Source: a bacterium
Lineage (GTDB): Bacteria; Patescibacteriota; Minisyncoccia; Phycocordibacterales; UBA12088
Assembly (NCBI GenBank): GCA_003252295.1
Contig: QKEV01000003.1
Span: forward strand, 128,701-192,700
DNA: 64,000 bases
Direction of reading: 5' to 3'
In this document: positions 19,275-62,260 of the stretch, piece after piece
Layout of the letters: every line of letters begins with the position of its first letter
How positions within the stretch are numbered: position 1 is the stretch's first letter
Notes under the pieces: model-generated
Databases searched by the model: none
The model's input: the letters and a program-made list of their open reading frames with translations, nothing else
Told to the model about the DNA's origin: nothing
Position numbers and translations under genes: made by a program

Positions 19275-20132
19275 ATGTTACAAAGTCTTGCAAAGACCAC
19301 AGCGGTCATTGTGAGCTCCACCGTCTTGGCAACGCTTGCTGTGAACGCTGTTGATATGAACGGCGCATTCTCCCACTCAATGCTTGGAGGACTGCTGTTT
19401 TCTGTTAGTAGTGAAGAAACTGAGACATGTCCTCCAAACATGGTGCTCGTCACACAAGCGCTCGTGCCATTTTGTGTTGATATGTATGAGGTGTCCGCAG
19501 GTGATGCGTGTGTATACGCTGAACCAGCTGATGAAGCAGAAACCATGTTAAATCTCAATGATAGAAAATGCACACCTGTCTCAGAGGTAAACAAAAAACC
19601 ATGGACTAATGTGTCACTCGATCAAGCACAGCAAGCATGTTCACGAGCAGGGAAACGACTTCCAACAGCGAGTGAATGGTACAAGGCAGCAATAGGTACT
19701 CCTGACATGTCCTCTGGTTGGAACGAAGAGCAGTGTAATGTTGCCAATAATCGTGCAGATGGTGCGTCACTAACGGGAGGTGGTATGCGCTGCATTTCTG
19801 ATGCTGGTGCGTACGACATGGTGGGAAACGTCTGGGAGTGGGTAGCTGATACTGTAGATAATGGTGTATGGGATGGGAGAGAGCTACCGATGACAGGTTT
19901 TGTGGCAGGTGTTGATATTGATGGTATACCGTACCTCACAGAACAAACAAAAAATGCAACCTTTAATAATGATAGGTTTTGGATGGATAGTACTATTCAT
20001 GCAGGTGTACTGCGAGGTGGATACTACAACAGTCAGAGTCAATCAGGAGTGTACGCTACCTACATGGCGAGCCCTCCAACATTTAGTGGTGATGCAGTGG
20101 GTTTTAGATGTGTGACAACAGTTCATGAGTAG
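19275..20132 (+). CDS. Secreted FGE-sulfatase (SUMF1 / formylglycine-generating-enzyme) domain protein.
   Basis: Signal peptide. Motifs KRLPTASEWYKAA, MVGNVWEWVAD, LRGGYY and GFRCV match PF03781 hallmarks (RLPTEAEWE, GNVWEW, RGGS., GFRC). Confidence 0.75.
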   Translation: MLQSLAKTTAVIVSSTVLATLAVNAVDMNGAFSHSMLGGLLFSVSSEETETCPPNMVLVTQALVPFCVDMYEVSAGDACVYAEPADEAETMLNLNDRKCTPVSEVNKKPWTNVSLDQAQQACSRAGKRLPTASEWYKAAIGTPDMSSGWNEEQCNVANNRADGASLTGGGMRCISDAGAYDMVGNVWEWVADTVDNGVWDGRELPMTGFVAGVDIDGIPYLTEQTKNATFNNDRFWMDSTIHAGVLRGGYYNSQSQSGVYATYMASPPTFSGDAVGFRCVTTVHE

Positions 20133-21996
20133 TACTATAAATACAAAAATTTGGTGGTGGGGAGGTTGTGTACTATTCATGTTTTTAATGATGTGTGTGC
20201 ATGTGGTGAGCTCACAGTCGACCTCATACTTGACGTACGTGAGCGATCGATTGACGCATAGTGCACCTGCTGCATCAACAAACCATACGATTACCTTTAC
20301 ATTGACACAGGCAGTACCAGCGGGCGGTGCTGTTGAGCTGCTCTTTGATGAAGGTGGAATAACTATCCCGGCAGCACTCGACTACACTGATGTTGATATG
20401 GCATTTGCAGCAGTAGCAGGTGGTCCCTATACGGAACGTCCTCTGTCATGGCTACAGAGCGCTGGAACTGATGATGTGACCGTGACGAGTGGTGCAAATG
20501 GGAGTGTGCGCTTTGACCTTAATACATCGGTAGGTATTGCCGCTGGTAATGAAGTAGTAGTTGAAATAGGTACTAATGCAACCTATGGTGCTCTTGGTGA
20601 TCAGCAAACGACACTGATCAATGCTACCGGTACGTATCCGGTAACCATTTACACATACGATGCTTCGGATATAGAAATAGATTATGGTAGAACAGTTTTT
20701 GTTGTAGTTGAGCCGGTGACGGCTGGTCCAGTGGATACCACAGACACTGACCCACCGATCATTATAAGTTCATGGCCAAGCGGCATTCTGCAAACGGGAA
20801 CAGAGGCAGCTGAGATGTATGTAGAGACAAATGAGTTGGCAACCTGTAAGTACGCAACATCGAGCATGTCGTACTCGCTCATGCCGTATACATTCTGGTC
20901 AACCTCAACATCTGATTATGCACTATGGAACTTTGCACAACTCACCGGACTCACTGATGGTGAGTCGTACATATACTATGTTCGCTGTATTGACTTTCGT
21001 TTGAATGAAATGAACCCGGATTACATTATTGCGTTTGAGGTAGGTATTCCTCCTGGAAGTTCGACAACTACCTCGACTAGTACGAGTGTCGGTACCGGAA
21101 TAGGTGATGTTGCAAGTTCTACCTGTATTGGAGACCAATGTGTTGGAGACGACATTGGTTCCGGTAGTGGTTCAACAGGTACGGGAGACGGTAGTAGTCC
21201 TACAGGAGGTGATAATAGTGGTAGTGGCAACGGAGGAGGTAGTAGTGGTGGTGATTACTTACCACAAGCTGATGTAATGATCGATGGTTGGGCATATCCG
21301 AACTCAACAGTGTATCTTTTGCGTGATGGGGTAGAAGTAGGTACTGAGTCACCAGGAGGTGACGCATACTTTAGTAACCTTACTGAAGGACTTGATCGTG
21401 GTTCGTACTCATTTTCAGTGTATGCCATAGATGCAAAAAATGGACGCAGTGCAACAATCAGTACCACGCTCTGGTTGCAACAAGATACGTACAATGAGAT
21501 CAGTAACGTCATGCTTCCTCCTACGGTGCATGTCGTTGAGAATTCTGTTGCACCAGGTGCACCATTAGAGGTGAGTGGATATACTGCTCCACGAGCAACA
21601 GTGACAACATGGCTCAGGCCAAAACTTGCAGAGGTAACGAGTGCTGATATTGTTGCAACAACAACAGCAACTGCTGCAGGTACCTGGGCGCTCACCATAA
21701 GTACTACAGGACTCTCTCAAGGAACCTATGAACTTATAGCACAAGCAGTAATGCCAGATGGAACAGTAGAGAGTGATAAGAGTTTGCGGAAGACTATCGG
21801 TATTGGGGTAGACGTGGGTGCAGATGGAGATTGTATCAGTATAGGAGACCTCAACTGTGATGGGTATGTGAACCTTGTAGACTTTTCTATCTTGCTCTTC
21901 AATTGGAACACCTCAAGTGCAACAGCAGATATAAATGGTGATGGTTTAGTATCATTGCCTGACTTCTCGATTATGCTCTACAACTGGACGGGCTAA
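20125..21996 (+). CDS. Secreted 623-aa protein with a Gly/Ser-rich linker, an Ig-like domain and a C-terminal type-I dockerin-like module.
   Basis: The C-terminus GDLNCDGYVNLVDFSILLFNWNTSSATADINGDGLVSLPDFSIMLYNWTG carries two Ca-binding F-hand-like segments (D.N.DG.V...D). Start codon overlaps the stop of the FGE-like gene (20125 vs 20132). Confidence 0.8.
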   Translation: MSSTINTKIWWWGGCVLFMFLMMCVHVVSSQSTSYLTYVSDRLTHSAPAASTNHTITFTLTQAVPAGGAVELLFDEGGITIPAALDYTDVDMAFAAVAGGPYTERPLSWLQSAGTDDVTVTSGANGSVRFDLNTSVGIAAGNEVVVEIGTNATYGALGDQQTTLINATGTYPVTIYTYDASDIEIDYGRTVFVVVEPVTAGPVDTTDTDPPIIISSWPSGILQTGTEAAEMYVETNELATCKYATSSMSYSLMPYTFWSTSTSDYALWNFAQLTGLTDGESYIYYVRCIDFRLNEMNPDYIIAFEVGIPPGSSTTTSTSTSVGTGIGDVASSTCIGDQCVGDDIGSGSGSTGTGDGSSPTGGDNSGSGNGGGSSGGDYLPQADVMIDGWAYPNSTVYLLRDGVEVGTESPGGDAYFSNLTEGLDRGSYSFSVYAIDAKNGRSATISTTLWLQQDTYNEISNVMLPPTVHVVENSVAPGAPLEVSGYTAPRATVTTWLRPKLAEVTSADIVATTTATAAGTWALTISTTGLSQGTYELIAQAVMPDGTVESDKSLRKTIGIGVDVGADGDCISIGDLNCDGYVNLVDFSILLFNWNTSSATADINGDGLVSLPDFSIMLYNWTG

Positions 21997-22009
21997 CCAG
22001 AAGCGTATT

Positions 22010-22483: not shown

Positions 22484-22987
22484 ATGGGTACTTTTATGGA
22501 TAAACTTAAAGGCAAGGGTCTTGTAGACAAGGAGGGGAATCCGATGGATCCTGCATCAGCTCAGCAAAACCAGCAAGCTCAACAAGGAGTGTTGCCTGGG
22601 CATGCTTTGCAGCTCCCAGTTGACGTATTTCAGTCAGATAATGAAATCGTTATTTATGCCCAACTCGCGGGTATGGACATGCAGACACTTGACGTGTCTA
22701 TTGCTGGTGAAAACGACGTCGTGAGTATACAGGGCTCTGCACTCCGGCCAGAGCAGCTCATGCATGACGCAAGTGCCTCACACAATGGTGATTTTACCCT
22801 TGAAGAGTGTCATTGGGGTGACTTTTACCGACAGATCATTCTTCCAGATGAGATAGATCCTGAGCATGCGGAGGCAAAAACAAAAGATGGTGTACTCGTA
22901 TTACGATTGCCACTCCTTGGAAAACAAGCAAAGGGTTTACGATTAAATGTGACTCGTGTAGACGACCACACAGTGCAGAGTCAATAA
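22484..22987 (+). CDS. Small heat-shock protein, Hsp20 / alpha-crystallin family.
   Basis: 167 aa. The alpha-crystallin domain ends ...AEAKTKDGVLVLRLPL. There is no signal peptide. Confidence 0.75.
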   Translation: MGTFMDKLKGKGLVDKEGNPMDPASAQQNQQAQQGVLPGHALQLPVDVFQSDNEIVIYAQLAGMDMQTLDVSIAGENDVVSIQGSALRPEQLMHDASASHNGDFTLEECHWGDFYRQIILPDEIDPEHAEAKTKDGVLVLRLPLLGKQAKGLRLNVTRVDDHTVQSQ

Positions 22988-22988
22988 A

Positions 22989-24473
22989 ATGCTTTGCTCA
23001 TCGCGAAAACATATGAGCAAGGGTGTAAGTATACAACGTAACACAAGGCATCTTGGGAAACTACTCAGTTTGCTTTTTGTGTTTTTACTTGTTTTGGTCT
23101 TGCCGCGACCTTCATACGCGGCGAGCTATGCGTTTTCTCCTGCAACAGGTTCCTATGAGGTGGGTAAGAGTTTTACTGTAAAGGTGATGGTGAATGCTGG
23201 TGGAGACGCAGTGAACACAGGTGATGCTACCATTACATATGATTCGAACTTACTCACCGCTGTGTCTGCTGCAAAAGAATCAGCGTTCAATCTTTGGGTT
23301 ACTGAACCGACCATAAAAGCTGGTACGATAACATTTGCAGGAGGAGGCACCACTGCTATTTCTGGAACAAAAGCAATTGTCACGATCACCTTCAAAGCAA
23401 AGGCTGAGGGTACGGCGACGGTAGCCTTTTCAAAGGCAACACTCTTAGCTGGAGCAGGACAGAATGTTCTTAGTGGTTCTGATGGAGCAACGTTTACTAT
23501 TACACCTGCAGCTGCTACACCGGAACCTACTGCAGATCCGGAGGAGGAGAATCGAAACACAAAGATACCACCACCTGATGCACCTGTTATAAAGAGTACA
23601 ACACATCCTGAGAGTGAAGAGTGGTACGCTGCGTCTGATGCTGCGTTTAACTGGGATATACCGTATGGTGTAACTGCCATGCGTCTTTCCTTTGATCAAG
23701 ATGAGAAGGGTGCTCCTACTGAACAGCACAAGCCACCGATAGGTGAGTGGAAGACGAGTGGTGTAACTGATGGTGTTTGGTATCTCCATGCTGATTTTGA
23801 AAATCGTGGTGGCTGGGGAAGTTCTACTTCCTTTGCGATACATGTGGATACAACACCTCCTGAGGAGTTTAGTGTTTCTGCTGCTGGTGGAGATCTTACA
23901 GCAGAATTGCGTTTTGAAGCAGTAGATGCACTCTCTGGTATTTCATATTATGAGGTGTCTATTGATGATGGTAGTCCACGAGACGTACAGCCAACAGAGC
24001 TTACAGATGGCTATCGACTCACCAATCTTGATCCGGGTGAGCATACGATAGCAGTGACAGCATTTGATATGGCAGGGAATGAACGTTCAGCAGGTGGATC
24101 GGTTGAGGTGACAGGCACAAAACAGGTTGAGGAGGAGGTCTCTGAACCAATAGGATTTGACGCTATCTACTGGGTATCACTCTTGTTCATGGCAGCACTT
24201 GCAGTGGTAATAACCATGCTCATCAAGGAACGTCGCAAGTTTGTTGAAGAAAAAGATCATATTAAACGTGAGACCATGGAGGTAGGTGACCGACTCATAA
24301 ACATTTTTGGTGTACTTCGTGATGAGATTGAGGAAAAGGTGATAGAACTTTCTCATAAGCCAAATATGACCGACAATGAACGTAATATACTCGAGGGCTT
24401 GAAAGATGCACTCGATATTTCAGAAGAGCTTATCGATAAGGAGATCGAGGATGTTAGGAAGCTCCTCAAGTAG
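22989..24473 (+). CDS. Membrane-anchored cohesin-like scaffold protein: signal peptide, cohesin-like domain, Ig/FN3-like domain, TM helix, cytoplasmic coiled-coil tail.
   Basis: SYAFSPATGSYEVGKSFTVKVMVNAGGDAVNTGDATITYDSNLLTAV...GTITFAGGG...IVTITFKAKAEGTATVAF...ATFTI has a cohesin-like beta-sandwich pattern. TM helix IYWVSLLFMAALAVVITMLI. Paralogous to the ORF at 58948 (GEHTIAVTAFDMAGNERS vs GEHVLTVTAFDNAGNSTS). Its ATG directly abuts the Hsp20 stop. Confidence 0.65.
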   Translation: MLCSSRKHMSKGVSIQRNTRHLGKLLSLLFVFLLVLVLPRPSYAASYAFSPATGSYEVGKSFTVKVMVNAGGDAVNTGDATITYDSNLLTAVSAAKESAFNLWVTEPTIKAGTITFAGGGTTAISGTKAIVTITFKAKAEGTATVAFSKATLLAGAGQNVLSGSDGATFTITPAAATPEPTADPEEENRNTKIPPPDAPVIKSTTHPESEEWYAASDAAFNWDIPYGVTAMRLSFDQDEKGAPTEQHKPPIGEWKTSGVTDGVWYLHADFENRGGWGSSTSFAIHVDTTPPEEFSVSAAGGDLTAELRFEAVDALSGISYYEVSIDDGSPRDVQPTELTDGYRLTNLDPGEHTIAVTAFDMAGNERSAGGSVEVTGTKQVEEEVSEPIGFDAIYWVSLLFMAALAVVITMLIKERRKFVEEKDHIKRETMEVGDRLINIFGVLRDEIEEKVIELSHKPNMTDNERNILEGLKDALDISEELIDKEIEDVRKLLK

Positions 24474-24482
24474 CTACTACTC

Positions 24483-24535
24483 ATAAATATATAATTAGGT
24501 ATATAACTAATTATATACCTAATTATATACCTACT
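24483..24535. repeat. AT-rich palindromic element (aggtatata ... tatatacct repeats).
   Basis: taggtatataactaattatatacctaattatatacct contains inverted and direct repeats. It lies immediately 3' of the 22989 gene and 5' of the giant gene. Confidence 0.5.
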
Positions 24536-24874
24536 GGCAAAGATAAAAAATTATTTTTTATGTGTTGTATCTAAGATGCTCTTGAAAAATAAACATACTG
24601 TTGCACAATTTTTCTAGAAAAATAGTTACACAACAGCTCTCACTCAAAAAGTGTAAGCTGTTTTATTTTATAAAAGATATAGGGGGAGAGATAAGTTATT
24701 TTTTTTCTTGTCTATGAAGAAACTGTGGGCTCACATACGGCTTGAGTGTTGTGTTTAAGGAAAGGGTATAAAAAATATTTTTTATACTATAGTTTATTTG
24801 TAATATGGCTAGAAATATACATATTTTATTATTTATGTTGCTGGTTCTGTGAGATAATGTAGGTATCGAATACT
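24536..24874 (+). promoter_or_regulatory. AT-rich upstream / promoter region of the 5883-aa giant gene.
   Basis: About 340 bp of non-coding AT-rich sequence with several TATA(A/T)T-like hexamers, for example tatactatag, taatat and atatac. No ORF. Confidence 0.3.
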
Positions 24875-24904
24875 GTGCGTGCACAGGGGTTGTTCGGTGT
24901 AGAA

Positions 24905-27900
24905 ATGTTGAAACGTTTTTCATTTATTTATCGAAACAAGATACCACTCATAGTGGCAACACTCGTTGTGTTCATAGCAACACTCGTTGTATTTGCAGTG
25001 GAAGAGGAGAAAACGATCCATGTTTTTCCAACTGCAGTGAAGAGTGAGAACTGGATGAAAGAGAATAACGCACTTGAGCAGAGTCTTGGTGATCAAGCGG
25101 TACTTGAAGACTTTGATAGAGATAATTCTGCCTTTGTAATCTTTATAGAACATGAAAAACCTGATGAGGTTAAAGAGGAGGTATCAGAGGAAGAGGGTGG
25201 CACTGAGGGTGTCACACCTAATGATGCAGCAGAGGAGACAGAACAAGATGGGGTAACTGAAGAGGTGAATAATGAAGCAGGTGAGAGTACTCCTGCTGAG
25301 GAAGTGATAGAGGAAGAAGAAGTAGAAGAGCAGGAAACAATAGAAGAAGAGGAATCAACTATTGCGCCGATGGAAGATCTCACTATGCATGAGTATCTTT
25401 TTGATCTTGGAAGAGGTTTTGTTGGAAAACAAGCACATGCACAGGAGGTGGTTGAAGATACAGAAGAAGTAGAACAGGTTCCTGAGGAGGTTGAGGAACC
25501 ACAGATGAACAGTGAAGAGGAGGCAGTTGTAGCAGAACCTGTTACAGAAGAAATTGTTGAGGAAGTGTCGGAAGTTGAAGATATACAAACAGACGAGACG
25601 TCTTCAGGTGTGGAAGAGACGGTATCTGAGCCAGAGGAAGGTATTGCTGATGAGATAATGGATGAAGAAGTGGTAGAGGATGATACTGAAAATTCTGACC
25701 AGGTGGAAGAAGTACAGGAAGAGCAAGAGATTAAGGATGTGGTGAGTGATGAAGAGGTGATAACCGATACTTCCGTTGAGGAGGGTGTAGATGAGGATGT
25801 CCGTGTATGTAAGGTGCTCGGTACAGAATGCTACACACTTGAGTTTGATGGCTTCGATATCGGCAGTGTGCTTTCAGAGGAAACGGTAACAGGGTACACC
25901 TTGAATGCATCACTCGCAGCGCACTCTGATATAGATAGGTTTACGGATGATAAGGTACTCGTTCGTTACTTCTACAAGGGTAAGTGGCACCTTGCTGGTG
26001 AGATTGCCATTCGAGATACCATTTCAAACTTTGAGAATGGTGGTCATTTCCGTTTTGCTCTGCCTGATCTTTCAGGATGGGATGCGCTCCATACCTTTAA
26101 AGTTGAATTTGAGTTTGTTCGTCAGAGTGATGTGCGAACTGATTTCTATCTCGACAGTGTTTGGGTGGAAACAACATACCGGACTGATGGAAACGAAGGT
26201 CCTGTGTTTCCTGACAATGTACTTGAAGAACTCGAACACCTCGAGCAGGCACGTCGAGGTGATTTGTTGCGGGTAGATGATGACACGGTCATTACACTTC
26301 CATACGCAACTACCGATGGTGATGATCTGGTCATTCGTTCAAGTGAGGTAGCACTCGAGAGTCCTGGTACTGGTGAGATGTACTTTTCGGTGACCAATAT
26401 TGGAGATTCCAAGAAAGACTTCTCACTTTCGTTTTACATGCCGGATGAAGAGAGTGAACCACAGATGCTGCGGCAGTGGATGTACAACATTCCAGAAGAG
26501 GAAGAGGTGATTGAGTATGGCAGTCTTGCTCAGTACTGTGAGGGGACGTGGGTGCCGGATGAAGATGAGCCAGAGCGCTACTTGTGTGCTGAAACCGGAG
26601 TTGATCTCTACTGTAGCGAGCTCAACAGTGATATGACGAACTGTATTGAGAACAATGTTGAAGTTGGGCGTCATACAGAAACAGCTTACCGTGAGGGTTG
26701 GCATGAGTACCTGCTTGATCAAGAAGTGAAGGAGTCATCTAATGAAGAGGAAGTTGGAGAAAATGGAGAAACTGCTACTGATGCTATGTCTGCACAGGTA
26801 GCAGCAACAGAAGATGAGAAAGAAAAAGAGAGTTTCATTGACCGAGTCCGACGTTGGTTTAGTTTTACCAAACAGCCGGAACGTGATGCTGCTGTTACCT
26901 ACACTTCAAAAAATACTTTTACCGTTGCTCCTGACCAAACACTCTTCTTCTCGTCTCGTATTGAGTACCCGCAGATATCTGAGGGTGGTTTTGCGGTAGT
27001 TGCTACAGCTCGTAACGAGGCACCAGCACTTGATATTTCTTGGAAGAGTGATTGGCGTTACCGACTACCTGTTGAGTTTGATAGGGACATGGTCGGAGAT
27101 CGTCTCGATCTAAAACTCACTGTTGATGATGTACCACACATGTTTTCACATGTGGGTGATTGGTCGCAACTCTTCATACGTGAAGCTGATTCACATAGTG
27201 CAGAGTGGCTTCCGTTCACCCATACGGTGGTGAGTGACAGTAGGGTAGAGCTTTCAGTCGATCTGAGCACACTCTCTTCTGGTGCGCATGAACTTGAGGT
27301 CTACTATGGTGATGATGAAGTAATGAAAGAAGAGCGTAAGTTGCGAGGCAGTAAGCTGTTTATTAATCCTGAAGCACTATCTCTTGGTAGAGATGCTGAA
27401 GGTGCAGCAGATGATCTTACTGAACTCGGTTACAGAGTTGGTACGGTACAAGAGGTGGTGCTTGATGATGAGCCAAACCATCGGGTCCTTGTTGGGGAGG
27501 AGGAAGATGGCAGTTTCCCAGAAGATGGAAAACTTGTCTTTGCGTACCGTTCAAACAGAGCTGAGTCAAGGGAAGGAGTGTTTGCCGATGTTCCTGACAC
27601 GAATGATTTCAGTATTGCGCGCGCAACCCTTATTCATGCAGGTAAGGGTGAGGTACCTGATACAAGTGTGATCAAAACGGTTGGCAATGAGTGGGTGCTC
27701 AACACAGGCATGAGCAAGCGCACCTTTACCCCAGGAAAGTATATTCTTGAGGTTGAGGTGGTTGAGGGAGATACACGATATGTTGATACACAGGAGTTCT
27801 ACTGGGGTGTACTCACCTGGAACACAACAAAGAGTGTCTATGAAGTAGGTGAGACCGCTACCATGCACATGGGAGTTCTTGCTGACAGTGGTAGTACTGT

Positions 27901-49856: not shown

Positions 49857-49857
49857 T

Positions 49858-51309: not shown

Positions 51310-51315
51310 TGAACC

Positions 51316-52611: not shown

Positions 52612-54492
52612 ATGACTGAGAACATACGACACATAGTACAAAAAAGAGGTAAGGTAGCGCTTGTTGCGTTGCTTTCTGTTGTTTCAGTATTCATCCTCAG
52701 TGTCTTGTTTGATACACAGGAGATGAGTAGTGTTCACAGTGTTCAGGCAACAAGTACCGCAACGACGACGGTACGAGTTTTGAATACTCCACCTGCATGG
52801 ACAACAACTGCATATGAAAAGTATGATTCATCAACAACCACTCCTACTAACGTAGGAACATCAACTGTATGGACTGCTCAGGCAACTGATAGTAATGGTG
52901 AGCCATACTATCTACTTGTTTGCATGTCGAGTTCGACACCAATTGCTATAGGTGGACAACCACCTGTTTGTGGTGGGGGAAGTACTGATCAGTGGGCTAT
53001 TTCTGCGCTTACACCGAGTGGTACCTTTGCGGAAGTTTCCACAACAACACAGGTATCTTGGAATGAGAGGAATCCTTGGTACGCTTACATTTGTGATAGT
53101 AATGCTGGTGATCCATCATGTAACGATATTATGTACAATGGTCTCGATGATGGTACAGCAGACCCTCAAGATTCACCGTTTATAGTGAACCACCCAGCAA
53201 GTTTTACCGTTGCAGCTGATGATTCTCCAACACTTCCAGGTGATACGGTGACCTGGACTACAACTGCAACTGATACCGTTGATACACTTCGTGGTACTGA
53301 CTCACTGCAACTCTTTGTCTGTAAATCAAATGATTTTGATGTTTCAATACCCGGATGTGGTCCTTCAGGTGCATGGGCAACAAGTACTCTCTTTGCTGCA
53401 GGTAACCCATCAACCTCTACAGTCCTCGCTATTCCACTTCAAGATACTGACCATGATGCCTACGTATATGTAGTTGATGAATTTAATCTCGCTGCAACAG
53501 GAGCTGCTCAAGGTTCAAATACAACACTAACGGTGAGCAATGCAACACCATACGTAGCAAGCTCTACGATAACTGTATATGACGTTGGTATGGTTGATAC
53601 TAATCTTAGACTTACGACTGAAGAGGGTGAGACTGAGAATTTTGTGATGCGTTTTGAGGTTGTTGATGATAATAGCTGTTTAAATGCTGCAAGTGGTAAT
53701 GAGATTACTGATGTTGATATTAATGTATTTCGTTCAGGAGTAGGATTACTAGACAGTACTGGTTGTGATGAGGCTGGAGAATACAATGCTAACAACTGCT
53801 ACACGGACACAACTAATGCTTCTAACTGGAGTCCGACATGTACCCAGGTACCAGGTGATTGTTTAGGTGCTACACAAGCGAGTGTGGAATGGGAGTGTAC
53901 GTTCCCACTTTGGTACATAGCTGATCCAACCGATGTAGGTAGCTTGTACGCAGGTGAGGATTGGCGTGGCGCTGCACGTGCAACTGATGATGATGCTGCA
54001 ACTACTGCATACTACTCAGTCGATGATGAAGCTGCTGACGGTGCTTCACAGTTGCTACAGTTCTTATCATTTAGGGCAACAGGTTCACCAATTGCTTATG
54101 GATCTCTTGAGCCAGGTGACTTCAATCCTCTTGAGTTCGCTACAACGACACTCTATGCTACAGGCAATACTGGTCTTGATCAGTACCTCTCAGGTGATGC
54201 GATGTGTGTGACCTATCCAACCTGTTCTAATGACCCGACAGATACCATTTATGTGCCGTATCAGCACTACTCACTCACCGAAGGAGCAGCCTTTGCTGCT
54301 GGAACACAGCTTTCTACAAGTACAGCACCTGCATACGTTGATGTGACAGTGCTCAAGACCACTGCTACATCAACACCGACGAGTGATGATACCTTCTGGG
54401 CTATTCAGGTACCAAGCAGTATTACTTTTGCCGGTGATTACATAGGACGCAACTACATTGATGCGGCAGTATCACCTAGTGGTGAATGGTAG
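52612..54492 (+). CDS. Secreted 626-aa protein whose C-terminal half is paralogous to the C-terminus of the 5883-aa giant, including the WxL-like domain.
   Basis: Signal anchor VALVALLSVVSVFILSVLF. Segments LWYIADPTDVGSLYAGEDWRGAARATDDD and IAYGSLEPGDFNPLEF...TFWAIQVP align with the giant's EIQYFAEPTDAGTYAGEHWEASLFVIDTT and INYGTLGIGEDTGAV...TLYWGIYVP. Confidence 0.7.
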   Translation: MTENIRHIVQKRGKVALVALLSVVSVFILSVLFDTQEMSSVHSVQATSTATTTVRVLNTPPAWTTTAYEKYDSSTTTPTNVGTSTVWTAQATDSNGEPYYLLVCMSSSTPIAIGGQPPVCGGGSTDQWAISALTPSGTFAEVSTTTQVSWNERNPWYAYICDSNAGDPSCNDIMYNGLDDGTADPQDSPFIVNHPASFTVAADDSPTLPGDTVTWTTTATDTVDTLRGTDSLQLFVCKSNDFDVSIPGCGPSGAWATSTLFAAGNPSTSTVLAIPLQDTDHDAYVYVVDEFNLAATGAAQGSNTTLTVSNATPYVASSTITVYDVGMVDTNLRLTTEEGETENFVMRFEVVDDNSCLNAASGNEITDVDINVFRSGVGLLDSTGCDEAGEYNANNCYTDTTNASNWSPTCTQVPGDCLGATQASVEWECTFPLWYIADPTDVGSLYAGEDWRGAARATDDDAATTAYYSVDDEAADGASQLLQFLSFRATGSPIAYGSLEPGDFNPLEFATTTLYATGNTGLDQYLSGDAMCVTYPTCSNDPTDTIYVPYQHYSLTEGAAFAAGTQLSTSTAPAYVDVTVLKTTATSTPTSDDTFWAIQVPSSITFAGDYIGRNYIDAAVSPSGEW

Positions 54493-54522
54493 TACTAGGA
54501 CATATTACATAGAACTAATTTT

Positions 54523-54549
54523 AAAAGGGCACGTATGTGCTCTTTTTTG
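54523..54549 (+). terminator. Rho-independent terminator.
   Basis: aaaagggcacgtatgtgctctttttt: a 7-bp stem with one G-U pair and a T6 run, 30 nt after the stop. Confidence 0.55.
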
Positions 54550-54693
54550 CTATGGTTTAACATCTAAAACTGTGGCGTAGTCATGGCTACCCACAACTTG
54601 TACCCAAAAGCAAGTATCATGTTTTCTTATTTATAGCTACAATAGATATACATCGGGACTTGTCCCGATTGTGGTTAATCACATAAATTTTGC

Positions 54694-55779
54694 ATGTTAC
54701 AACGGCTCGCAGTAGTAGCTGCCTTGTTAGTAATGCTTGTTAACGTGAATGTGGCTCACGCTGGTTTTGGAATAACGCCACCATACGTTCGTAACGATAA
54801 ACTTACTCAGGGCTCAACGTACACACAGGAGATAATTCTTGTGCGTGGTGACCCTGTTGAGGACCTGAAAGCTGAGATCACGGTTAACGTTCCAGGTATT
54901 GAGGACTGGATCACTATTGATAAGGGAAATGAATTTTTGCTTCCAGCAGGGGCTAAGCAGGTACCTATGCAGGTAACCGTTAGTGTCCCTGATAATGCGG
55001 CATATGAACGTTACCAAGGAAATATTCGTATACGCACCCTTTCACCTGACCCAGCAAGTGGTGTGTCTATCGCACTTGGTGCACAGATAGATGTTGATTT
55101 GCGTGTTGTTGATGAGATACGTGACTTTGAGGTAAAGCGTGTGCAAATGAGTGAGACTGAGGAGCCAACACGTCTGTGGTGGCTTGAGTTTCCAGGAAGG
55201 ATACAGTTTTCGATGGGTATAGAGAACACTGGTAATGCTCCAGTTGCCCCATCAAAGGTGCAGTTGGATATATATGATAGGAAGGGGAATATTGTACTTG
55301 AAACAACATATAATACGAATGAACTTGATGAGATCCTACCTTTCGAGACGCGTGAGATATATGCATTCATCCCTACTCGACTGCCTTCTGGCGCGTACCT
55401 CGTAAAGTACTCTATTTTTAGGTATGACGATGATATTAAACGTACTGGTGAACTAACGCTTTCTATACTGCCATCAGGAACACTGAGTTCGTACGCTGGG
55501 TACGGTTTTGAGGGACTTTCCATGTCTGACAAAATGACTATTTTTGTTCCGATTGGTCTCTTACTCCTCATACTCATACTGACCATTACGATTTTGTCTT
55601 TGCGAAAAAAGAATAAGAAACAGCGACGACATACACCGCGAGGGAAAGGAGGACATGAAGATTATGACGCATCTTACTACCGTGATCCGAGAACGCCACA
55701 ACGCAGGGCGCCACCACAGAAAACACAGTATGGTGGTAGTCATGAGGTTGTTGACCTATCTCGTACAAGGAGACGGTAG
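54694..55779 (+). CDS. Cell-surface protein, DUF916/DUF3324-like paralog 4, with a C-terminal TM anchor and a basic tail.
   Basis: Signal peptide LAVVAALLVMLVNVNVAHA. Conserved EDWITIDKGNEFLLPAGAKQVPMQVTVSVPDNAAYERYQGNIRIRT. TM helix IFVPIGLLLLILILTITILSL, then KKNKKQRRH. CATAAAT box 5 nt before the ATG. Confidence 0.7.
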   Translation: MLQRLAVVAALLVMLVNVNVAHAGFGITPPYVRNDKLTQGSTYTQEIILVRGDPVEDLKAEITVNVPGIEDWITIDKGNEFLLPAGAKQVPMQVTVSVPDNAAYERYQGNIRIRTLSPDPASGVSIALGAQIDVDLRVVDEIRDFEVKRVQMSETEEPTRLWWLEFPGRIQFSMGIENTGNAPVAPSKVQLDIYDRKGNIVLETTYNTNELDEILPFETREIYAFIPTRLPSGAYLVKYSIFRYDDDIKRTGELTLSILPSGTLSSYAGYGFEGLSMSDKMTIFVPIGLLLLILILTITILSLRKKNKKQRRHTPRGKGGHEDYDASYYRDPRTPQRRAPPQKTQYGGSHEVVDLSRTRRR

Positions 55780-55785: not shown

Positions 55786-56973
55786 ATGATTTCCTCAGTG
55801 CTCAGTGTAAGGTGTAAGGCACAACTACTTATTGTACTTGGAACTGTTCTTACAGGAATTGTATTTGCTCTGTCTACTCAAAGTGCGTATGCACAGTACA
55901 CTGCTACAACAACAGTATCATTAACGGTTTGTGGAGATGCTATTGTTGCACCTGGTGAGTTTTGTGATGATGGAATAAATACTGGTGCTTACGGTGACTC
56001 TATTGCTGGAAGGGTTTGCGATCCAATCTGTAGTGCGTGGGGACCGTACTGTGGTGATGGCGTAATACAAGCTTTTTACGGAGAGGAATGTGATGATGGT
56101 AATAACACCTCTGGCGATATTTGTAGTGCAACGTGTCAAAATGAGACCGATCCAGTTACTGAAGGTGGAGGTGGTAGCGGTGGTCCAGGTGGAGGTGGTG
56201 GAGAGAGTAGTGGTGGAAGTGGTATAAAAGGTGCAAGTAAAGACGGTGAGATTGATTATGAAGGTGACACGAATGTAAACATAAACGGAAGAGCATGTCC
56301 TGGTTCAACTATAACCGTGCTTCGTGATGGTGAGGTTGATCGAGTGGTGGAAGCAGATTCTTCTTCAGAGTTTAGTTTTACGCTCACTGATCAAACCCCA
56401 GGCATCACCACATTAGGTTTTTGGGTACTTGATAATGATGGAAGACGTTCAGTAACATACTCTGCAACATTTCAAATAATTGAAAATGCTGTAACGACAC
56501 TTTCTGGTGTACTCATTCCACCTACCATTGCAGTAGTACCTGAGCAAGTACCATACGGTGAGGCAGTTACCTTTGAAGGATGTGCGCTTCCTGCAACACA
56601 GATTCAGGCATACATTGATAGCAATGAGACACCAGATGAAACGTTGGTTGCAAATAATGGTGACTGGGCAATCGTGCATGACACAACAGAACTTAGTAAT
56701 GAATCGTTCCATACAGTGAAGGCGAACTACATAGATCCGACAAACATTGAACTCAAGAGCGGATATAGTTTGATTACTAGTTTTTATGTAGGGAACAGAG
56801 ACGTAAACACAAATATGACTGCAGACCTCAACTTTGATGGGTTTGTAAATTTGACAGATTTTTCCATCCTTCTCTTTAACTGGGGCATGACAGGAGGGAT
56901 AGCGGACATAGATCAAAATGGCAGTGTAGCGTTGTCGGACTTCTCCATCATGCTTTTTTACTGGACTGGGTAA
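55786..56973 (+). CDS. Secreted protein with a Myxococcus-type Cys-rich repeat region, an Ig-like domain and a C-terminal type-I dockerin-like module.
   Basis: CGDAIVAPGEFCDDGINTG...CGDGVIQAFYGEECDDGNNTSGDICSATC fits the C..CGDG....E.CDDGN repeat. The Ig-like block is shared with the ORF at 20125. C-terminus ADLNFDGFVNLTDFSILLFNWGMTGGIADIDQNGSVALSDFSIMLFYWTG. Confidence 0.8.
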   Translation: MISSVLSVRCKAQLLIVLGTVLTGIVFALSTQSAYAQYTATTTVSLTVCGDAIVAPGEFCDDGINTGAYGDSIAGRVCDPICSAWGPYCGDGVIQAFYGEECDDGNNTSGDICSATCQNETDPVTEGGGGSGGPGGGGGESSGGSGIKGASKDGEIDYEGDTNVNINGRACPGSTITVLRDGEVDRVVEADSSSEFSFTLTDQTPGITTLGFWVLDNDGRRSVTYSATFQIIENAVTTLSGVLIPPTIAVVPEQVPYGEAVTFEGCALPATQIQAYIDSNETPDETLVANNGDWAIVHDTTELSNESFHTVKANYIDPTNIELKSGYSLITSFYVGNRDVNTNMTADLNFDGFVNLTDFSILLFNWGMTGGIADIDQNGSVALSDFSIMLFYWTG

Positions 56974-57910: not shown

Positions 57911-57932
57911 TAAACTACGGTATACTATAGGC

Positions 57933-58970
57933 ATGTACTACCAGCGTTTTTTTGGGGTGCTTTTACTTGTACTGTTGCTTGTTCCGCAAGGTGTTGGTGC
58001 TGTTCAAATCACTCTTGATACAGAGGAAGAGATGCAAAATCATCTTGATACTTTTTACGTACCAGTGCGTATTGATACTGAAGGTGAATGTATTAATGCA
58101 GTAAAGGTTGTTCTTGCTTACAATCCAGACGAAATTTCTATCAAAGATGTACTCACTGGTGATTCAGTGGTGACTTTATGGACAGAGAAACCTACTGTTG
58201 CACTAGAGGATGGCCATGAGATGGGGCGTGTGAGTTTTGAGGGTGGTATACCTGGAGGGTACTGCGGGAGGGTGGCAGGTGATCCTGGGCTTACTAATAT
58301 TTTAGCAAAACTTGCGGTGACAGGTGTTCCTGGGTCAGTTGAATTTGGTAGCACCTTGGAAACACAGATAGTGGTTGATCCAAACACCAAAGTATTTCTC
58401 CACGATGGACTTGGTACTGAAGCATCACTTACCACACTAGGTCTTGAACTTTCAGTAACACACTCAACAACCACAGGAAGTAATATCTGGCTTAGAGATG
58501 TACAAGCAGACACCATAGCCCCTGAAGATTTTGATATTACCCTTGTTGAGGGACCATCAGCAGGGAACCAGAAGCATTACATTGTTTTCAATACGACCGA
58601 TAAGCAGAGTGGTGTTGATCACTATGAAGTGCTGGAAACAGATCCTGACAAGTTTGGTTTCCTCTCCTGGTTGCCTAAAAAGGCTTACTGGGTGATAGCT
58701 GAAAGCCCCTTTGTGCTTCGAGACCAAAGGTTGCAATCAAAAATAATGGTGAAAGCGGTTGATAAGAATGGTAATGAGCGCATCAGTATATATACACCAC
58801 CTATTTCAACATTTGATCAACTTACAAGGATGAGTACCATGTTACCACTTCTTGGAATACTGCTCTTCATAGCAGTGCTTGCTGTCGTACTTTTGCGGAT
58901 GAGGAGGTGGTGTACAGAAAAAGAAAAGGTAAAGGAATCAACAAGTCATGACCATGAATCATATGAATAG
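57933..58970 (+). CDS. Membrane-anchored cohesin-like protein: signal peptide, cohesin-like domain, Ig-like domain, C-terminal TM.
   Basis: VQITLDTEEEMQNHLDTFYVPVRIDTEGECINAVKVVLAYNPDEISIKDV...GRVSFEGG has a cohesin-like pattern. TM helix LPLLGILLFIAVLAVVLL. Paralogous to the ORFs at 22989 and 58948. Confidence 0.55.
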   Translation: MYYQRFFGVLLLVLLLVPQGVGAVQITLDTEEEMQNHLDTFYVPVRIDTEGECINAVKVVLAYNPDEISIKDVLTGDSVVTLWTEKPTVALEDGHEMGRVSFEGGIPGGYCGRVAGDPGLTNILAKLAVTGVPGSVEFGSTLETQIVVDPNTKVFLHDGLGTEASLTTLGLELSVTHSTTTGSNIWLRDVQADTIAPEDFDITLVEGPSAGNQKHYIVFNTTDKQSGVDHYEVLETDPDKFGFLSWLPKKAYWVIAESPFVLRDQRLQSKIMVKAVDKNGNERISIYTPPISTFDQLTRMSTMLPLLGILLFIAVLAVVLLRMRRWCTEKEKVKESTSHDHESYE

Positions 58971-60828
58971 ATTGATACTGCTTTGTATTTTTGGATTGTC
59001 ATTCCTGTTTCTTGGAACAGGAACGGTGTTTGCTCAAGAGGCGGCATCACTCTCTCTTGTGCCAGCAACAGGAGTGTATCCTGTAGGTGAGGAGTTTACG
59101 ATTGAGGTACGACTGGATACAGCTGGTGTTCAGGTAAGTACGGCTGATGCAACTATTTCATACAATCCTGAAGATATGTCATTTGTCTCTGTTTCAGGGG
59201 AGGGGTCAATTTTTAATCATGTGAGTCAGGTGGTTGATTCTGAGAAGGGTGAGGTGAGTATCTCCGGATTAGTTACCGGTGGTCAACAGGATTATGTCGG
59301 TGTCTACGGTCTAGTGGCAAGTATCACTTTTATGCCGAAGAGAAACGTTGCAACACAGCTGCACTTTGCAAGTGGTGGTGCTCGGAAGCTTCAGTTGGGG
59401 GCATCTGTGGGAGATGCACTCAATATTCTTTCTGTGCTCAATACTGCTACCTATACGTTTGTGCCAAGAGAAAATACAGTAGCATCTGTACAGCAAATGG
59501 TGGCAGGAGATATGACAAGTAAGCTTGAAATAACACCACTCCCCGTTCCAGATGGTGATTGGTTTGCCACAACAACAGTAAAGCTTAGTTGGACGGTACC
59601 AGAGGGTGCCTTGGAGATGCGTACACTCACAACAGGTGATCCAAGTGATATGCCAACTGAGTCGTACCAAATACCAGTTTCATCTATCGTTGTTGATGAT
59701 TTAAAAGAGGGAACAAACTACTTTTTGCTACAGTTTAAATTTGCAAGTGGTGATTGGGATTCGGTGATACAGTACCCATTACAGGTAGATATCTCAGATC
59801 CTGATTACATTACGGTACGGGAAGCACAACGTGAAGATGGAGCTGATCCACGTGTATCTTTTGAAGTAGAGGCAGGTGACAGTGTATCTGATATTTCTCA
59901 TTTTGAAATGGGTATTGATGGTGAACCAGGAGAGAAGTGGGTTAAAGAGGAACGTTCAGATAAGTATAGACCAGAAGAGTTAACGGCAGGAGAGCATGTC
60001 CTGACGGTTACTGCGTTTGATAATGCTGGAAACAGCACCTCTTCTGATTATGTATTTCTCGTGAGTTCACTTGAACCACCAACACTCACTCCTGAGAGTG
60101 TTCCAGATAGGGTACTCACCGGAGATACTATTACTGTTTCAGGAAGCTCGTACCCAAATGCTCAAGTGACAACATATATTTCTCTGAATGATGGTGAAGC
60201 GTCAGAAAAAACAGTGAAGACAGATGGTGTTGGCAACTTTGTTGTAGATATAACTGATGGTGCGCGTGCAGGGAAGTATACGATGTGGTTTTCAGTAACT
60301 GATGAGCGTGGAGCAACGAGCCCTAATTCAATACGTCGTTCAGTAACCGTAACACAACCAACCATCATGCTGTTAGGTCAGAAACCAATTACGTACTTAG
60401 CGGTCATTGTGCCACTCATTGCACTCATCGTCCTTTTGGGACTCGTGCTCTGGCTAGCGTATACGTGGGTCCGTGGGTATAGGAACAGGGTAAGACATGA
60501 GACGGGAGATGCGTACTACGCAGCAAAGGGAGAGTTTGACAAGCTTCGTAAGGAACTTGTTGAGCAGATAGGTATGTTAGAAAAGGCAAACCAATTACGT
60601 GAGCTTACACGAGAAGAGATGCGTATTTTTATAAACCTTTCGAAGCGACTCGATAAGATGGAACGACATATTATCCAAGAGATAGAAGATATTGAGGTGT
60701 TTGATGAGGATGAGAGTCTTGTAGAGGAAGAGTTGCATTCAGACAAAGAGGGCTCACTGGAACACTACAGGGAGAAGGTGAAGTTTGGTGAGCAGAAGTA
60801 CGACGAATCACATATTATTCGTTTGTAG
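58948..60828 (+). CDS. Membrane-anchored cohesin-like scaffold protein: cohesin-like domain, Ig/FN3-like domains, TM helix, cytoplasmic coiled-coil tail.
   Basis: ASLSLVPATGVYPVGEEFTIEVRLDTAGVQVSTADATISYNPEDMSFVSVSGEG...VASITFMPKRNVATQLHF. TM helix AVIVPLIALIVLLGLVLWLAY. The tail ...ELTREEMRIFINLSKRLDKMER resembles the tail of the ORF at 22989. Confidence 0.65.
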   Translation: MTMNHMNRLILLCIFGLSFLFLGTGTVFAQEAASLSLVPATGVYPVGEEFTIEVRLDTAGVQVSTADATISYNPEDMSFVSVSGEGSIFNHVSQVVDSEKGEVSISGLVTGGQQDYVGVYGLVASITFMPKRNVATQLHFASGGARKLQLGASVGDALNILSVLNTATYTFVPRENTVASVQQMVAGDMTSKLEITPLPVPDGDWFATTTVKLSWTVPEGALEMRTLTTGDPSDMPTESYQIPVSSIVVDDLKEGTNYFLLQFKFASGDWDSVIQYPLQVDISDPDYITVREAQREDGADPRVSFEVEAGDSVSDISHFEMGIDGEPGEKWVKEERSDKYRPEELTAGEHVLTVTAFDNAGNSTSSDYVFLVSSLEPPTLTPESVPDRVLTGDTITVSGSSYPNAQVTTYISLNDGEASEKTVKTDGVGNFVVDITDGARAGKYTMWFSVTDERGATSPNSIRRSVTVTQPTIMLLGQKPITYLAVIVPLIALIVLLGLVLWLAYTWVRGYRNRVRHETGDAYYAAKGEFDKLRKELVEQIGMLEKANQLRELTREEMRIFINLSKRLDKMERHIIQEIEDIEVFDEDESLVEEELHSDKEGSLEHYREKVKFGEQKYDESHIIRL

Positions 60829-60854
60829 GAATATTTATCATTATAGTAAGAAGA

Positions 60855-60891: not shown

Positions 60892-60900
60892 GGTGGCGTT

Positions 60901-61425
60901 TTACTTTCTTTTCCACTGGACGTAGCTTTTTCTGGCTACTTCCTCCTGAATACAAATTTGCATCTCTTGTTCTGCATGTTGTTCAGCGCTGTTTCTGCTG
61001 TTTCTAATTCTTTTTCCAGCTTTGTCTGCAATTATGGTTGCATCGGCACTTTTTGTTAGCCCTCCTGCAATTAGAGCGGGTGCCATTTGTTTTAATTTTC
61101 CAAGGAATCTCTCTTTGCTTTTTTGAAACCTGGACTTTTGTCCAACGAGTACAACTTTTGCACGAATTCCTTGCTCTGCCCACATTTTATTAATCCTTTT
61201 TGCACACACGGGATATGCATCGAGGTGTGCTTGGGTAACCTGCATGCTTCTGTATTTAGGCATTTCAATTTCAAACACATGCACACCTGGTGTTCTGTTG
61301 CTGCTTGGCAGCATTTCTTTGGCATTTGATATACCCTGTGCGATATTTTCAACGCATGCTGTCTGGCTGAAAGCCAGAAATAATATCGCTACACAAAGAA
61401 GTGCAGCTCTCCATGTTTTTTTCAT
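60901..61425 (-). CDS. Putative secreted protein or lipoprotein of 174 aa, function unknown.
   Basis: Signal peptide ALLCVAILFLAFSQTAC with a possible lipobox Cys. The remainder is basic and helical. Confidence 0.5.
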   Translation of the reverse strand: MKKTWRAALLCVAILFLAFSQTACVENIAQGISNAKEMLPSSNRTPGVHVFEIEMPKYRSMQVTQAHLDAYPVCAKRINKMWAEQGIRAKVVLVGQKSRFQKSKERFLGKLKQMAPALIAGGLTKSADATIIADKAGKRIRNSRNSAEQHAEQEMQICIQEEVARKSYVQWKRK

Positions 61426-61519
61426 TTTGCACCTCCTTTGGGCACACTAAATTTGTTGTAAGTAAAACGCTATTTCCTAGATTCGTAATACCATACTTTT
61501 ATAAAAAAAGCAATATTTT

Positions 61520-62260
61520 CTATATCCAGCCAACCGCGAGTGATCCTAAGTTAGAGTCAGTTCCCATGTTTTTTATGAGTACACCTATGTCACTGAGGGT
61601 TATCTTTCCATCAAGGTTGAGGTCGTATGCACGTTCGTAGGCCATGAAGAGTCGTGCTGATACAATACCAAAATCAAAGAGATTGACTGTTTTGTCACCA
61701 TTCACGTCAGGACTTGGGTGCTCAGGAGGGCGGATGGTAAGTACAAGTGCATTGTTGCTGCTTGAAACTGGCATACCGGTGCCATCATGAGCCAGCATCT
61801 CTGAATTCTCAATATCTATTTTTGCAATACCTTCAGCTGTTGGTATGACAATAAAGGTAAGCACTACCCCATTTCCTAGAAAGCCGTTTTCAGTGACCAT
61901 GCCACCAGAAAACGTTATTTTGTTATCACTGGTTATTGTTGGCTCTTGTGTCCACAAATCAATAATAGAGTTTTCCCTTGAAATAGCATCAATAGAGACA
62001 AGTTCTTGTGGGGCAACAATAGTTGCTCCTAGTACATTTATCGGTTCGTTTGCATCAGCTATAACTTGTATGGTTACCTGTTCTCCCACCTCAACAAAAC
62101 GGTTGTCTTCAGAGGAGAGGTATATTTCTTCAGGGTCACGTATGAGAGAAAACGAAGATGCGAGCAAAAAAGCGATTGGCAAGGTAATGGCAATTTTTGT
62201 TCTATGTTTCTTCAAGTGGTGTCGTACGCTCATTATGGTACTAGTATACAGGTAAATCAT
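61520..62260 (-). CDS. Secreted adaptor protein carrying both a cohesin-like domain and a C-terminal dockerin-like module.
   Basis: Signal anchor IAITLPIAFLLASSFSL. Cohesin-like VEVGEQVTIQVIADANEPINVLGATIVAPQELVSIDAIS...ITFSGG...VLTFIVIPTAEG. C-terminus DVNGDKTVNLFDFGIVSARLF...DLNLDGKITLSDIGVLIKNMG, a duplicated D.N.D(G/K).(V/I)...D segment. Confidence 0.6.
   Translation of the reverse strand: MIYLYTSTIMSVRHHLKKHRTKIAITLPIAFLLASSFSLIRDPEEIYLSSEDNRFVEVGEQVTIQVIADANEPINVLGATIVAPQELVSIDAISRENSIIDLWTQEPTITSDNKITFSGGMVTENGFLGNGVVLTFIVIPTAEGIAKIDIENSEMLAHDGTGMPVSSSNNALVLTIRPPEHPSPDVNGDKTVNLFDFGIVSARLFMAYERAYDLNLDGKITLSDIGVLIKNMGTDSNLGSLAVGWI

Follow-up and report, generated by a model that had tools for sequence, protein, structure and literature searches.

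Among the closest described counterparts of the locus reported here were the anchoring scaffoldins of cellulosomes, such as SdbA, OlpA and OlpC of C. thermocellum and ScaE of R. flavefaciens, in which a cell-bound cohesin receives dockerin-tagged secreted proteins. To our knowledge, the surface organisation and partner attachment of Patescibacteria (or Candidate Phyla Radiation, CPR) remain largely unknown, and most of their large surface proteins are unannotated. Here we analysed a 64-kb stretch of DNA (hereafter the window) on the 203-kb contig QKEV01000003.1 of an ultra-small Patescibacteria bacterium, where cohesins and dockerins were co-encoded without plant cell-wall-degrading cargo. Homologues of the encoded proteins carried the names Candidatus Pacebacteria, Parcubacteria group or Patescibacteria group. 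We propose that a conserved chromosomal locus for surface proteins in the window probably encodes a system that displays proteins by means of cohesins and dockerins and is not a cellulosome. Its cohesin and dockerin bearers are labelled A, C, D, F, G and I (coordinates in Table 1).

Compared with the anchoring scaffoldins, whose cohesins were a close fold match, the receptors of the window ended in a C-terminal transmembrane (TM) helix, followed in C and G by a conserved cytoplasmic tail, rather than in an S-layer homology (SLH) or sortase anchor. Moreover, they were accompanied by neither enzymes nor carbohydrate-binding modules (CBM) and belonged to a CPR bacterium whose genome was reduced. 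Non-cellulosomal modules such as those of A. fulgidus (2xdh) and C. perfringens (2jh2, 2vo8, 2w1n and NagH 2jnk/2ozn) likewise stood outside plant cell-wall degradation and were among the best fold or sequence matches of our proteins. However, those modules were soluble or enzyme-borne, whereas in the window a conserved locus of several genes combined receptors integral to the membrane with dockerins of two classes and a linked Hsp20 gene. Like protein I, an A. fulgidus protein carries both a cohesin and a dockerin on a single chain, and the non-cellulosomal modules have reportedly been surveyed by Peer et al. in 2009 (cited in PMC10066038). Protein I was also similar to the adaptor scaffoldins (A. 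cellulolyticus ScaA, R. flavefaciens ScaH/ScaC) in combining a cohesin with a dockerin of a type unlike the cargo dockerins, but it had a single cohesin, a linker of ~6 residues and an N-terminal helix that was possibly retained in the membrane.

Cohesin-dockerin pairs outside cellulosomes are established, among them those of the R. bromii amylosomes (PMC4611034). In the Chlorochromatium epibiont, the adjacent genes Cag_2037 (cohesin) and Cag_2038 (dockerin) encode Ig (immunoglobulin)-repeat proteins for which surface tethering in a bacterium-bacterium symbiosis was proposed (bioRxiv 10.64898/2026.03.19.712371), and this precedent supported our proposal. The epibiont proteins were giants of the RTX/T1SS (repeats-in-toxin/type I secretion system) type in a diderm, whereas those of the window were small Sec-dependent single-pass receptors of a monoderm-like CPR bacterium. 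Further support came from a cultivated patescibacterium, in which a dockerin-domain envelope protein was essential (PMC10633639). In our literature search, no description of a cohesin-dockerin system from CPR bacteria was found, nor any paper joining "Parcubacteria" with "cohesin". What is new here is a conserved cohesin-dockerin locus that is non-enzymatic, anchored by membrane helices and equipped with receptors that bear tails.

Cohesin and dockerin modules of the window

The window contained exactly four cohesin bearers (C, F, G and I) and exactly three dockerin bearers (A, D and I), which together spanned 42 kb, and the cargo consisted of Ig-like and Cys-rich modules. An initial annotation, made by inspection, had named these open reading frames (ORFs); all were present at exactly its coordinates, and its cohesin and dockerin assignments proved right according to Pfam, profile-profile comparison and AlphaFold2 (AF2) folds. 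The inventory was considered complete because neither the family-profile search, which covered all six frames of the window, nor the repeat-motif scan gave any further cohesin or dockerin. The paired dockerin-repeat motif occurred in exactly three ORFs (A, D and I), always at the C-terminus, and in 0 of 100 DNA shuffles and 0 of 100 residue shuffles. Hidden cohesins or dockerins in the giant 5883-aa protein or in a 2338-aa protein were ruled out by the six-frame profile and motif scans.

The Pfam models recovered a part of this set. At the gathering cut-offs of 24.1 bits (Cohesin, PF00963) and 22.9 bits (Dockerin_1, PF00404), the anticipated matches were obtained for two cohesins (C and G) and two dockerins (A and I), but not for the cohesins of F and I or the dockerin of D. 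Some orthologues in the F and I families (P0255, P0257, P0261 and P0108) reached the Cohesin cut-off in precomputed annotation. The NCBIfam scan added only sub-threshold matches, to a GC-type dockerin, an OmpL47-type barrel and Ca_tandemer, and neither tRNA genes nor Rfam families were detected in the window.

Membrane-anchored cohesin proteins

C, F and G were Sec-exported type-I membrane proteins with one membrane-distal cohesin each. In all three, a signal peptide that looked cleavable preceded the cohesin, which stood at the N-terminus of the mature protein; one to three Ig-like domains and the C-terminal TM helix came after it. In C, whose probable, conserved start was M9, the cohesin was followed by a linker, a middle domain, a Big_13-like Ig domain, the TM helix and an 82-aa cytoplasmic amphipathic tail. 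In G, the signal peptide and cohesin preceded a middle domain and two Ig domains, and the TM helix led into a cytoplasmic tail of ~121 aa; C and G were clear paralogues over 374 residues (BLASTP E 8e-38). F, whose gene was overlapped by that of G by 23 nt, comprised a signal peptide, cohesin, one Ig domain, TM helix and a tail of ~24 aa. Thus, the description of all three as ending in a TM helix plus a coiled-coil tail suited C and G, which had long tails, but not F. At least 94 homologues were found for C and 604 for F, and some C homologues were already labelled "cohesin domain-containing protein" in public annotation.

The F and C families were related with a probability of 99.8% (hhalign, E 3.7e-29) over the cohesin and the membrane-proximal Ig domain. 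The AF2 model of F, built with 41 homologues, had a mean pLDDT (predicted local distance difference test) of 84.5, and its top 36 Foldseek matches in the PDB were all cohesins. The model of I (35 homologues) reached a mean pLDDT of 83.8, mostly 89-97 in the sandwich, and showed a beta-sandwich with two helices; its top 35 PDB matches were again all cohesins. For both proteins the E-values were ~1e-8 to 1e-7 and the target TM-scores (template modelling) up to 0.76-0.78, so the cohesin beta-sandwich predicted for these proteins was confirmed at the level of the models. The matches included the A. fulgidus 2xdh and C. perfringens 2jh2, 2vo8 and 2w1n cohesins as well as those of OlpC (4dh2) and ScaE (2zf9). 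In profile searches of PDB sequences, all matches of the F family were cohesins but non-significant (E 0.15-0.45), and the C family matched generic Ig-like domains only. C and G would belong to the cohesin fold class by homology to the modelled F and I.

The F-family cohesins had an invariant cysteine pair (C53 and C111) and a strongly conserved GGIPGGYCGRVxGDPGLTN insertion, both of which were absent from C, G and I. Together they may form a disulfide-stabilised loop, a candidate specificity element.

Protein I combines both modules

Protein I, with a probable start at M10, had an N-terminal hydrophobic helix, a cohesin, a linker of ~6 residues and a dockerin, and 72 homologues were identified. 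Its N-terminal domain matched the cohesin of C (E 4e-12), and its family was related to the F family with a probability of 99% (hhalign, E 5e-18). The I-family profile also matched PDB dockerins by sequence, namely 5k39_B (E 8e-5) and the NagH dockerin 2jnk/2ozn (E 2e-4).

The N-terminal helix contained 18-21 hydrophobic residues after a basic stretch, and its pairwise identity across orthologues was 0.60, compared with 0.27 and 0.24 for the signal peptides of C and F. Since the helix was far better conserved than these signal peptides, it is possibly an uncleaved anchor, and I may be membrane-anchored by it rather than secreted. Accordingly, the view of I as a secreted adaptor scaffoldin was sound with respect to the presence of both a cohesin and a dockerin, but the secretion of the protein was insecure.

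Two classes of dockerins

A and D were secreted and non-enzymatic; Ig-like or Cys-rich modules abounded in them, and a class-1 dockerin closed each chain. In A, the signal peptide was followed by uncharacterised N-terminal domains, a Gly/Ser linker, Ig-like domains and the dockerin, which ended WTG-stop. In D, a Cys-rich DUF4215 repeat came after the signal peptide and was followed by a Gly-rich linker, a pair of Ig-like domains and the dockerin. Two clean DxNxDGxVxLxD F-hand repeats, 27 residues apart, were kept in all 10 of the D orthologues examined, and D also matched the I-family profile (E 0.002). The dockerin was the best-conserved module of D (identity to distant orthologues 0.61, compared with 0.38 for the Ig domains), as would suit a binding interface under constraint. 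The A and D dockerins had been called near-identical; 32 of 49 residues (65%) were identical, placing them in the same class at a lower similarity than that.

Each of the three dockerins had two tandem F-hands with a 12-residue Ca2+ loop (D1, N/D3, D/N5, D12) and a helix, and in I the helices were predicted in the model. Positions D1, N3, D5 and D12 were invariant in both repeats across 35 I orthologues and largely kept, with occasional substitutions, in the orthologues of A and D. Class 1, found in A, D and all their orthologues, read DLNGDGKVNLxDFSILLFxW, 5-7 residues, and then DINGDGxVxLxDFSI[LM]LFxWTG-stop. Its halves were internally symmetric (11-13 of 22 residues identical), a hallmark that may be linked to dual-binding-mode dockerins. 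Class 2, found in I, read PDVNGDxxVNLxDFGIVSARLF...YDLNxDGKIxxxDI and was asymmetric, with 6 of 21 aligned positions identical. The dockerins of both classes were compact.

Between near and distant orthologues, the dockerin of D and the cohesin of F were the best conserved, and the dockerin of I changed the most. An assignment of cohesin-dockerin pairs by differential conservation was rejected, as it did not discriminate between the pairings.

Conserved gene order

The modules had been described as scattered across an island. Instead, their genes formed two tight, conserved syntenic sub-clusters of a chromosomal locus. Sub-cluster 1 consisted of A, Hsp20, C and the giant gene. The A-Hsp20-C trio was present in six of six genomes (the window, L001, L002, L003, L016 and L017) with C identities down to 35%, and a giant gene encoding 5997-7696 aa followed the C orthologue in four of the five related contigs, that is, in five of the six genomes with the window included. 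In the remaining one (L002), C was followed by an fn3/purple-acid-phosphatase-N protein and an ABC (ATP-binding cassette) pair.

Sub-cluster 2 consisted of ABC, MacB, M, L, D, F and G, convergent with H and I. Its L-D-F-G/I core was found in 10 of the 12 loci retrieved through I, at I identities down to 32%; ABC, MacB and M were present wherever the contig reached that far (L004-L006, L009, L011, L012 and L014), and F and G overlapped or abutted across loci. The two sub-clusters lay ~38 kb apart in the window and likewise in a 339-kb JGI contig.

In relatives, housekeeping genes flanked the locus on both sides (Peptidase_M17; RNR, enolase and PPDK), and the GC content of the window had a flat profile with no sharp boundary. 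Both features argued against a recently acquired island. The reading as a horizontally acquired genomic island was rejected in view of the lineage-wide synteny together with the lack of a sharp GC boundary.

Cytoplasmic tails and the Hsp20 gene

The tails of C and G (82 and ~121 residues) were 43-49% charged with a strong 3.5-residue hydrophobic periodicity, and no significant heptad signal was found in the tail of F (~24 residues). The C tail was the most conserved region of its family (pairwise identity 0.65, compared with 0.49 for the cohesin), and the G tail was homologous to it (C profile match, iE 3.5e-7). A search of 1.84 billion representative proteins found the tail in 169 clusters. 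In the 150 listed matches, except the multi-stretch P0297 and P0413, it stood at the C-terminus or at most ~70 residues from it. Among the matches listed, the tail-bearing proteins were ~340-370, ~490-510 or ~570-600 aa long, and some had no cohesin.

The Hsp20 gene ended 15-25 nt upstream of the C start, and this adjacency was kept in six of six genomes. Thus, the conserved tails and the invariably adjacent gene for a cytoplasmic Hsp20 suggested that the C and G receptors are also engaged from the cytoplasmic side. Moreover, a groundwater sequence (P0409, L019 6001-8337) encoded Hsp20, cohesin, Ig, TM and tail in one open frame, and this fusion was reproduced in two independent assemblies of one sample (SRR1534154). 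Taken with the adjacency, it hinted at a cytoplasmic partner for the tail. Translation of P0409 as a single chain is putative, because an internal start ahead of a signal-like segment was possible. Another organism had an F-G fusion of 886 aa (P0405).

One could go further and suppose that C and G couple the outside to the inside, with cohesin docking or load transmitted through the TM helix to a tail that engages an Hsp20-like protein, as an integrin-like link or a chaperone-assisted assembly device of ultra-small episymbiotic bacteria. This idea treats Hsp20 as co-transcribed with C, and we hold it to be speculative and unlikely. A promoter and terminator scan around A-Hsp20-C was uninformative, with fewer promoter-like sites than in shuffles.

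Proposed display system and its alternatives

Three defining features of cellulosomes were lacking: carbohydrate-active enzymes as cargo, a multi-cohesin scaffoldin with a CBM, and an SLH or sortase anchor. None of the large window ORFs matched a Pfam family of glycoside hydrolases (GH), carbohydrate esterases (CE), polysaccharide lyases (PL) or CBM, as the initial annotation had stated for glycoside hydrolases, and A, D and I had no catalytic domain. Each cohesin protein contained one cohesin, and neither SLH (Pfam scan) nor sortase anchoring was found; C, F and G ended in a TM helix and a cytoplasmic tail. Therefore, the locus did not encode a cellulosome, and the comparison with cellulosome-type organisation had to be abandoned. 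With the modules correctly identified and glycoside hydrolases absent, a non-cellulolytic cohesin/dockerin surface organiser, which had been offered as the interpretation of this lack, was the best available reading.

In the proposed system, C, F and G would hold their cohesins away from the membrane, with one to three Ig-like domains as the stalk. The A and D dockerins of class 1 might plug into these receptor cohesins in a Ca2+-dependent manner, and such docking would tether the A and D cargo non-covalently to the cell surface. Judged by gene neighbourhood, A would most economically pair with C, and D with F, G or both; the fact that a plug was kept next to a socket in both sub-clusters supported the pairing of window dockerins with cohesins. 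Protein I could bridge a further layer, with its dockerin on a receptor cohesin and its own cohesin left available to A or D; alternatively, it could form a lateral link between neighbouring receptors. The displayed proteins would most likely be adhesive or structural, serving in cell-cell or host attachment or in envelope organisation, and catalysis would be unlikely.

A number of observations weighed against this proposal. The A-C and D-F/G pairings were derived solely from gene order, and the binding is predicted. The cohesins of F and I were below the curated Pfam threshold on their own sequence, and so was the dockerin of D (18.8 bits). The repeat starts were 27-28 residues apart in both dockerin classes, which is shorter than in canonical type-I dockerins, and the model of I had two dockerin helices, without the usual middle helix. 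With respect to the cargo function, the N-terminal parts of A matched no Pfam family at the gathering cut-off, and among PDB sequences only the dockerin of A was matched, non-significantly (E 0.39 and 0.83). Cohesin-like sandwiches are also present in adhesins without dockerin binding, such as CLIPPER (9ifr), which was among the fold matches. Finally, no sub-cluster 2 lay near the A-Hsp20-C trio of L002, so a joint function of the two sub-clusters is not required.

Some of these points would also be expected if the modules were real but unpaired, with the cohesin-like domains as adhesive tips binding a host or partner ligand and the dockerin-like EF-hand pairs as Ca2+-dependent stabilising or glycan-binding tails. 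The CLIPPER domain, a cohesin-like adhesin fold without a known dockerin partner, is a case of this kind; non-cellulosomal dockerins have been proposed as adhesins themselves (PMC10066038), and the dockerin protein of the cultivated patescibacterium was read as glycan-targeting (PMC10633639). However, the adjacency of dockerin and cohesin genes survived deep divergence in two independent sub-clusters, which was the strongest argument against unpaired modules. Their numbers were also matched (four cohesins and three dockerins, with no other copies in 64 kb), and the most conserved part of D was its dockerin, as expected of an interface within the organism but not of a fast-evolving host-facing binder. 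We therefore regard unpaired modules, the main alternative, as unlikely.

It is less likely still that the locus encodes a self-assembling envelope layer or cell-wall machine, in which I would cross-link or polymerise C, F and G into a lattice, the MacB/FtsX-type ABC transporter and the WxLIP-like neighbours (see below) would take part, and A and D would be structural. This would agree with the retention of the ABC-MacB-M-L-D-F-G/I order as one block, with an I helix compatible with membrane anchoring and a very short linker between its cohesin and dockerin, with the many TM-anchored beta-sandwich neighbours of weak WxLIP_PGBD similarity, and with the conserved cytoplasmic tails. Nevertheless, the lattice is hypothetical, the ABC transporter was linked by synteny alone, and A and D resembled typical modular adhesin-type proteins with Ig repeats and a Cys-rich repeat. 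Such a layer overlaps with the proposed display system because cohesin-dockerin binding is required in both.

A true polysaccharide-degrading complex of the cellulosome or amylosome type, with its enzymes encoded elsewhere in the genome, is highly improbable: in its favour, 64 kb of genome was examined and a Glyco_hydro_6 (GH6) gene (L003, 1-48), the sole glycoside hydrolase seen near these loci, lay ~10 kb upstream of A-Hsp20-C in that distant relative, but the large window ORFs had no GH, CE, PL or CBM, both conserved dockerin carriers were non-enzymatic in all relatives examined, and the cohesin proteins had one cohesin each without SLH or sortase anchoring.

Table 1. Cohesin and dockerin proteins of the window, followed by the other genes of the two sub-clusters (positions are those of the window)
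Feature	Position	Strand	Evidence	Parts
A, secreted, 623 aa, class-1 dockerin	20125..21996	+	Pfam Dockerin_1 23.9 bits; two F-hand repeats	dockerin aa 575-623, nt 21847-21993
C, type-I membrane cohesin receptor	22989..24473	+	Pfam Cohesin 44.2 bits	probable start 23013 (M9); cohesin aa 46-172, nt 23124-23504; TM helix aa 390-412; tail nt 24225-24470
D, secreted, 395 aa, class-1 dockerin	55786..56973	+	DUF4215 E 2.4e-12; TIGR02232; Dockerin_1 18.8 bits	dockerin aa 347-395, nt 56824-56970
F, short type-I membrane cohesin protein	57933..58970	+	no Pfam match; hhalign and AF2 cohesin fold	cohesin aa 24-178, nt 58002-58466
G, C paralogue with extra Ig domain	58948..60828	+	Pfam Cohesin 28.1 bits, Big_13	cohesin aa ~33-175, nt 59044-59472
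I, 237 aa, cohesin and class-2 dockerin	61520..62260	-	Pfam Dockerin_1 31.5 bits; AF2 cohesin fold	probable start 62233 (M10); cohesin nt 61730-62134; dockerin nt 61556-61711
Hsp20 (alpha-crystallin), no signal peptide	22484..22987	+	Pfam HSP20 E 2e-10	
Giant 5883-aa surface protein, N-terminal TM anchor, DUF2341, Ig_Rha78A_N-like	24875..42526	+	conserved position after C	
ABC ATPase and MacB/FtsX-type permease pair	49846..52521	+	Pfam; synteny	
M (626 aa, N-terminal anchor) and L (361 aa)	52612..55779	+	sub-cluster 2 members, no cohesin or dockerin	M 52612-54492; L 54694-55779
H, 174 aa, signal or lipoprotein-like N-terminus	60901..61425	-	position conserved between G and I	

Neighbouring genes

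L belonged to a paralogous family in the window (17729-18799, 12218-13654, 13617-15011 and 54694-55779, +), with related loci in L001, L016 and L017. The members carried beta-sandwich domains between a signal peptide and a C-terminal TM helix, and L itself had in addition a basic cytoplasmic tail ending VVDLSRTRRR. This tail (55690-55779) ended G-V-V-D-L-S-R-[RK]-R in all 10 orthologues (L004-L014), and the paralogues of the 12218 type ended similarly with VVQLSSHRK (13600-13654). The p356/L-type proteins weakly matched WxLIP_PGBD (PF06030) in 4 of 17 homologues, with a best E of 5.4e-5 and all below the cut-off; the window protein 17729-18799 scored 16.1 bits against a cut-off of 27.3. A match to the WxL domain itself was not found in the Pfam scan. 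Judging from this similarity, a relationship of the locus to the Firmicutes surface clusters of WxL/Csc type is possible, which are likewise gene clusters of non-covalently assembled surface proteins with TM-anchored beta-sandwich proteins. The likeness concerned the p356/L-type neighbours, not the cohesin and dockerin proteins.

Several other neighbours shared C-terminal motifs. The 392-aa protein (16452-17630) and its orthologues ended ...DYTATLTYIATPVF, the 2338-aa protein (65-7081) ended in a looser variant ...GRYQSKVTYIIVPVF, and M and the giant protein ended ...YWGI.VP....G.Y.G.N... Pfam gave no match for these motifs, which we take to resemble the end of WxL domains. Some orthologues of the giant gene carried Laminin_G_3. 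H was poorly conserved in sequence, with ORFs of 151 and 163 aa at the equivalent position in L004 and L005. The ABC/MacB pair adjoined C in L002, and a functional link between the pair and the surface proteins is possible.

Two genes next to the cargo genes were less regular. A peptidase S51 gene (dipeptidase E-like, no signal peptide; 57188-57796, +) stood between D and F in the window only and was absent there in 10 of 10 related loci. A gene with an FGE-sulfatase domain and an N-terminal hydrophobic segment (19275-20132, +) overlapped the start of A by 8 nt; it was found at the equivalent position in L002 and L016 and was absent in L001, L003 and L017.

The nucleotide skew of the window had peaks at 8001-10000 and 24001-26000 (GC skew 0.27 and 0.30, AT skew 0.19 and 0.10, respectively). 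The first was inside a 1288-aa ORF (7418-11284) with no Pfam match, and the second spanned the intergenic region between C and the giant gene (24474-24874) and the start of the giant ORF. The peaks probably reflected biased or repetitive coding sequence.

Implications for Patescibacteria

The locus offers a concrete assembly principle for the surface of a widespread lineage, in which the F family alone comprised more than 600 sequence clusters. Its pieces were plug-and-socket modules of two apparent specificity classes with identifiable receptors and cargo, and the compact symmetric dockerin type could serve as a small orthogonal affinity pair. The locus also extends cohesin-dockerin biology to receptors anchored by TM helices and to receptors with conserved cytoplasmic tails.

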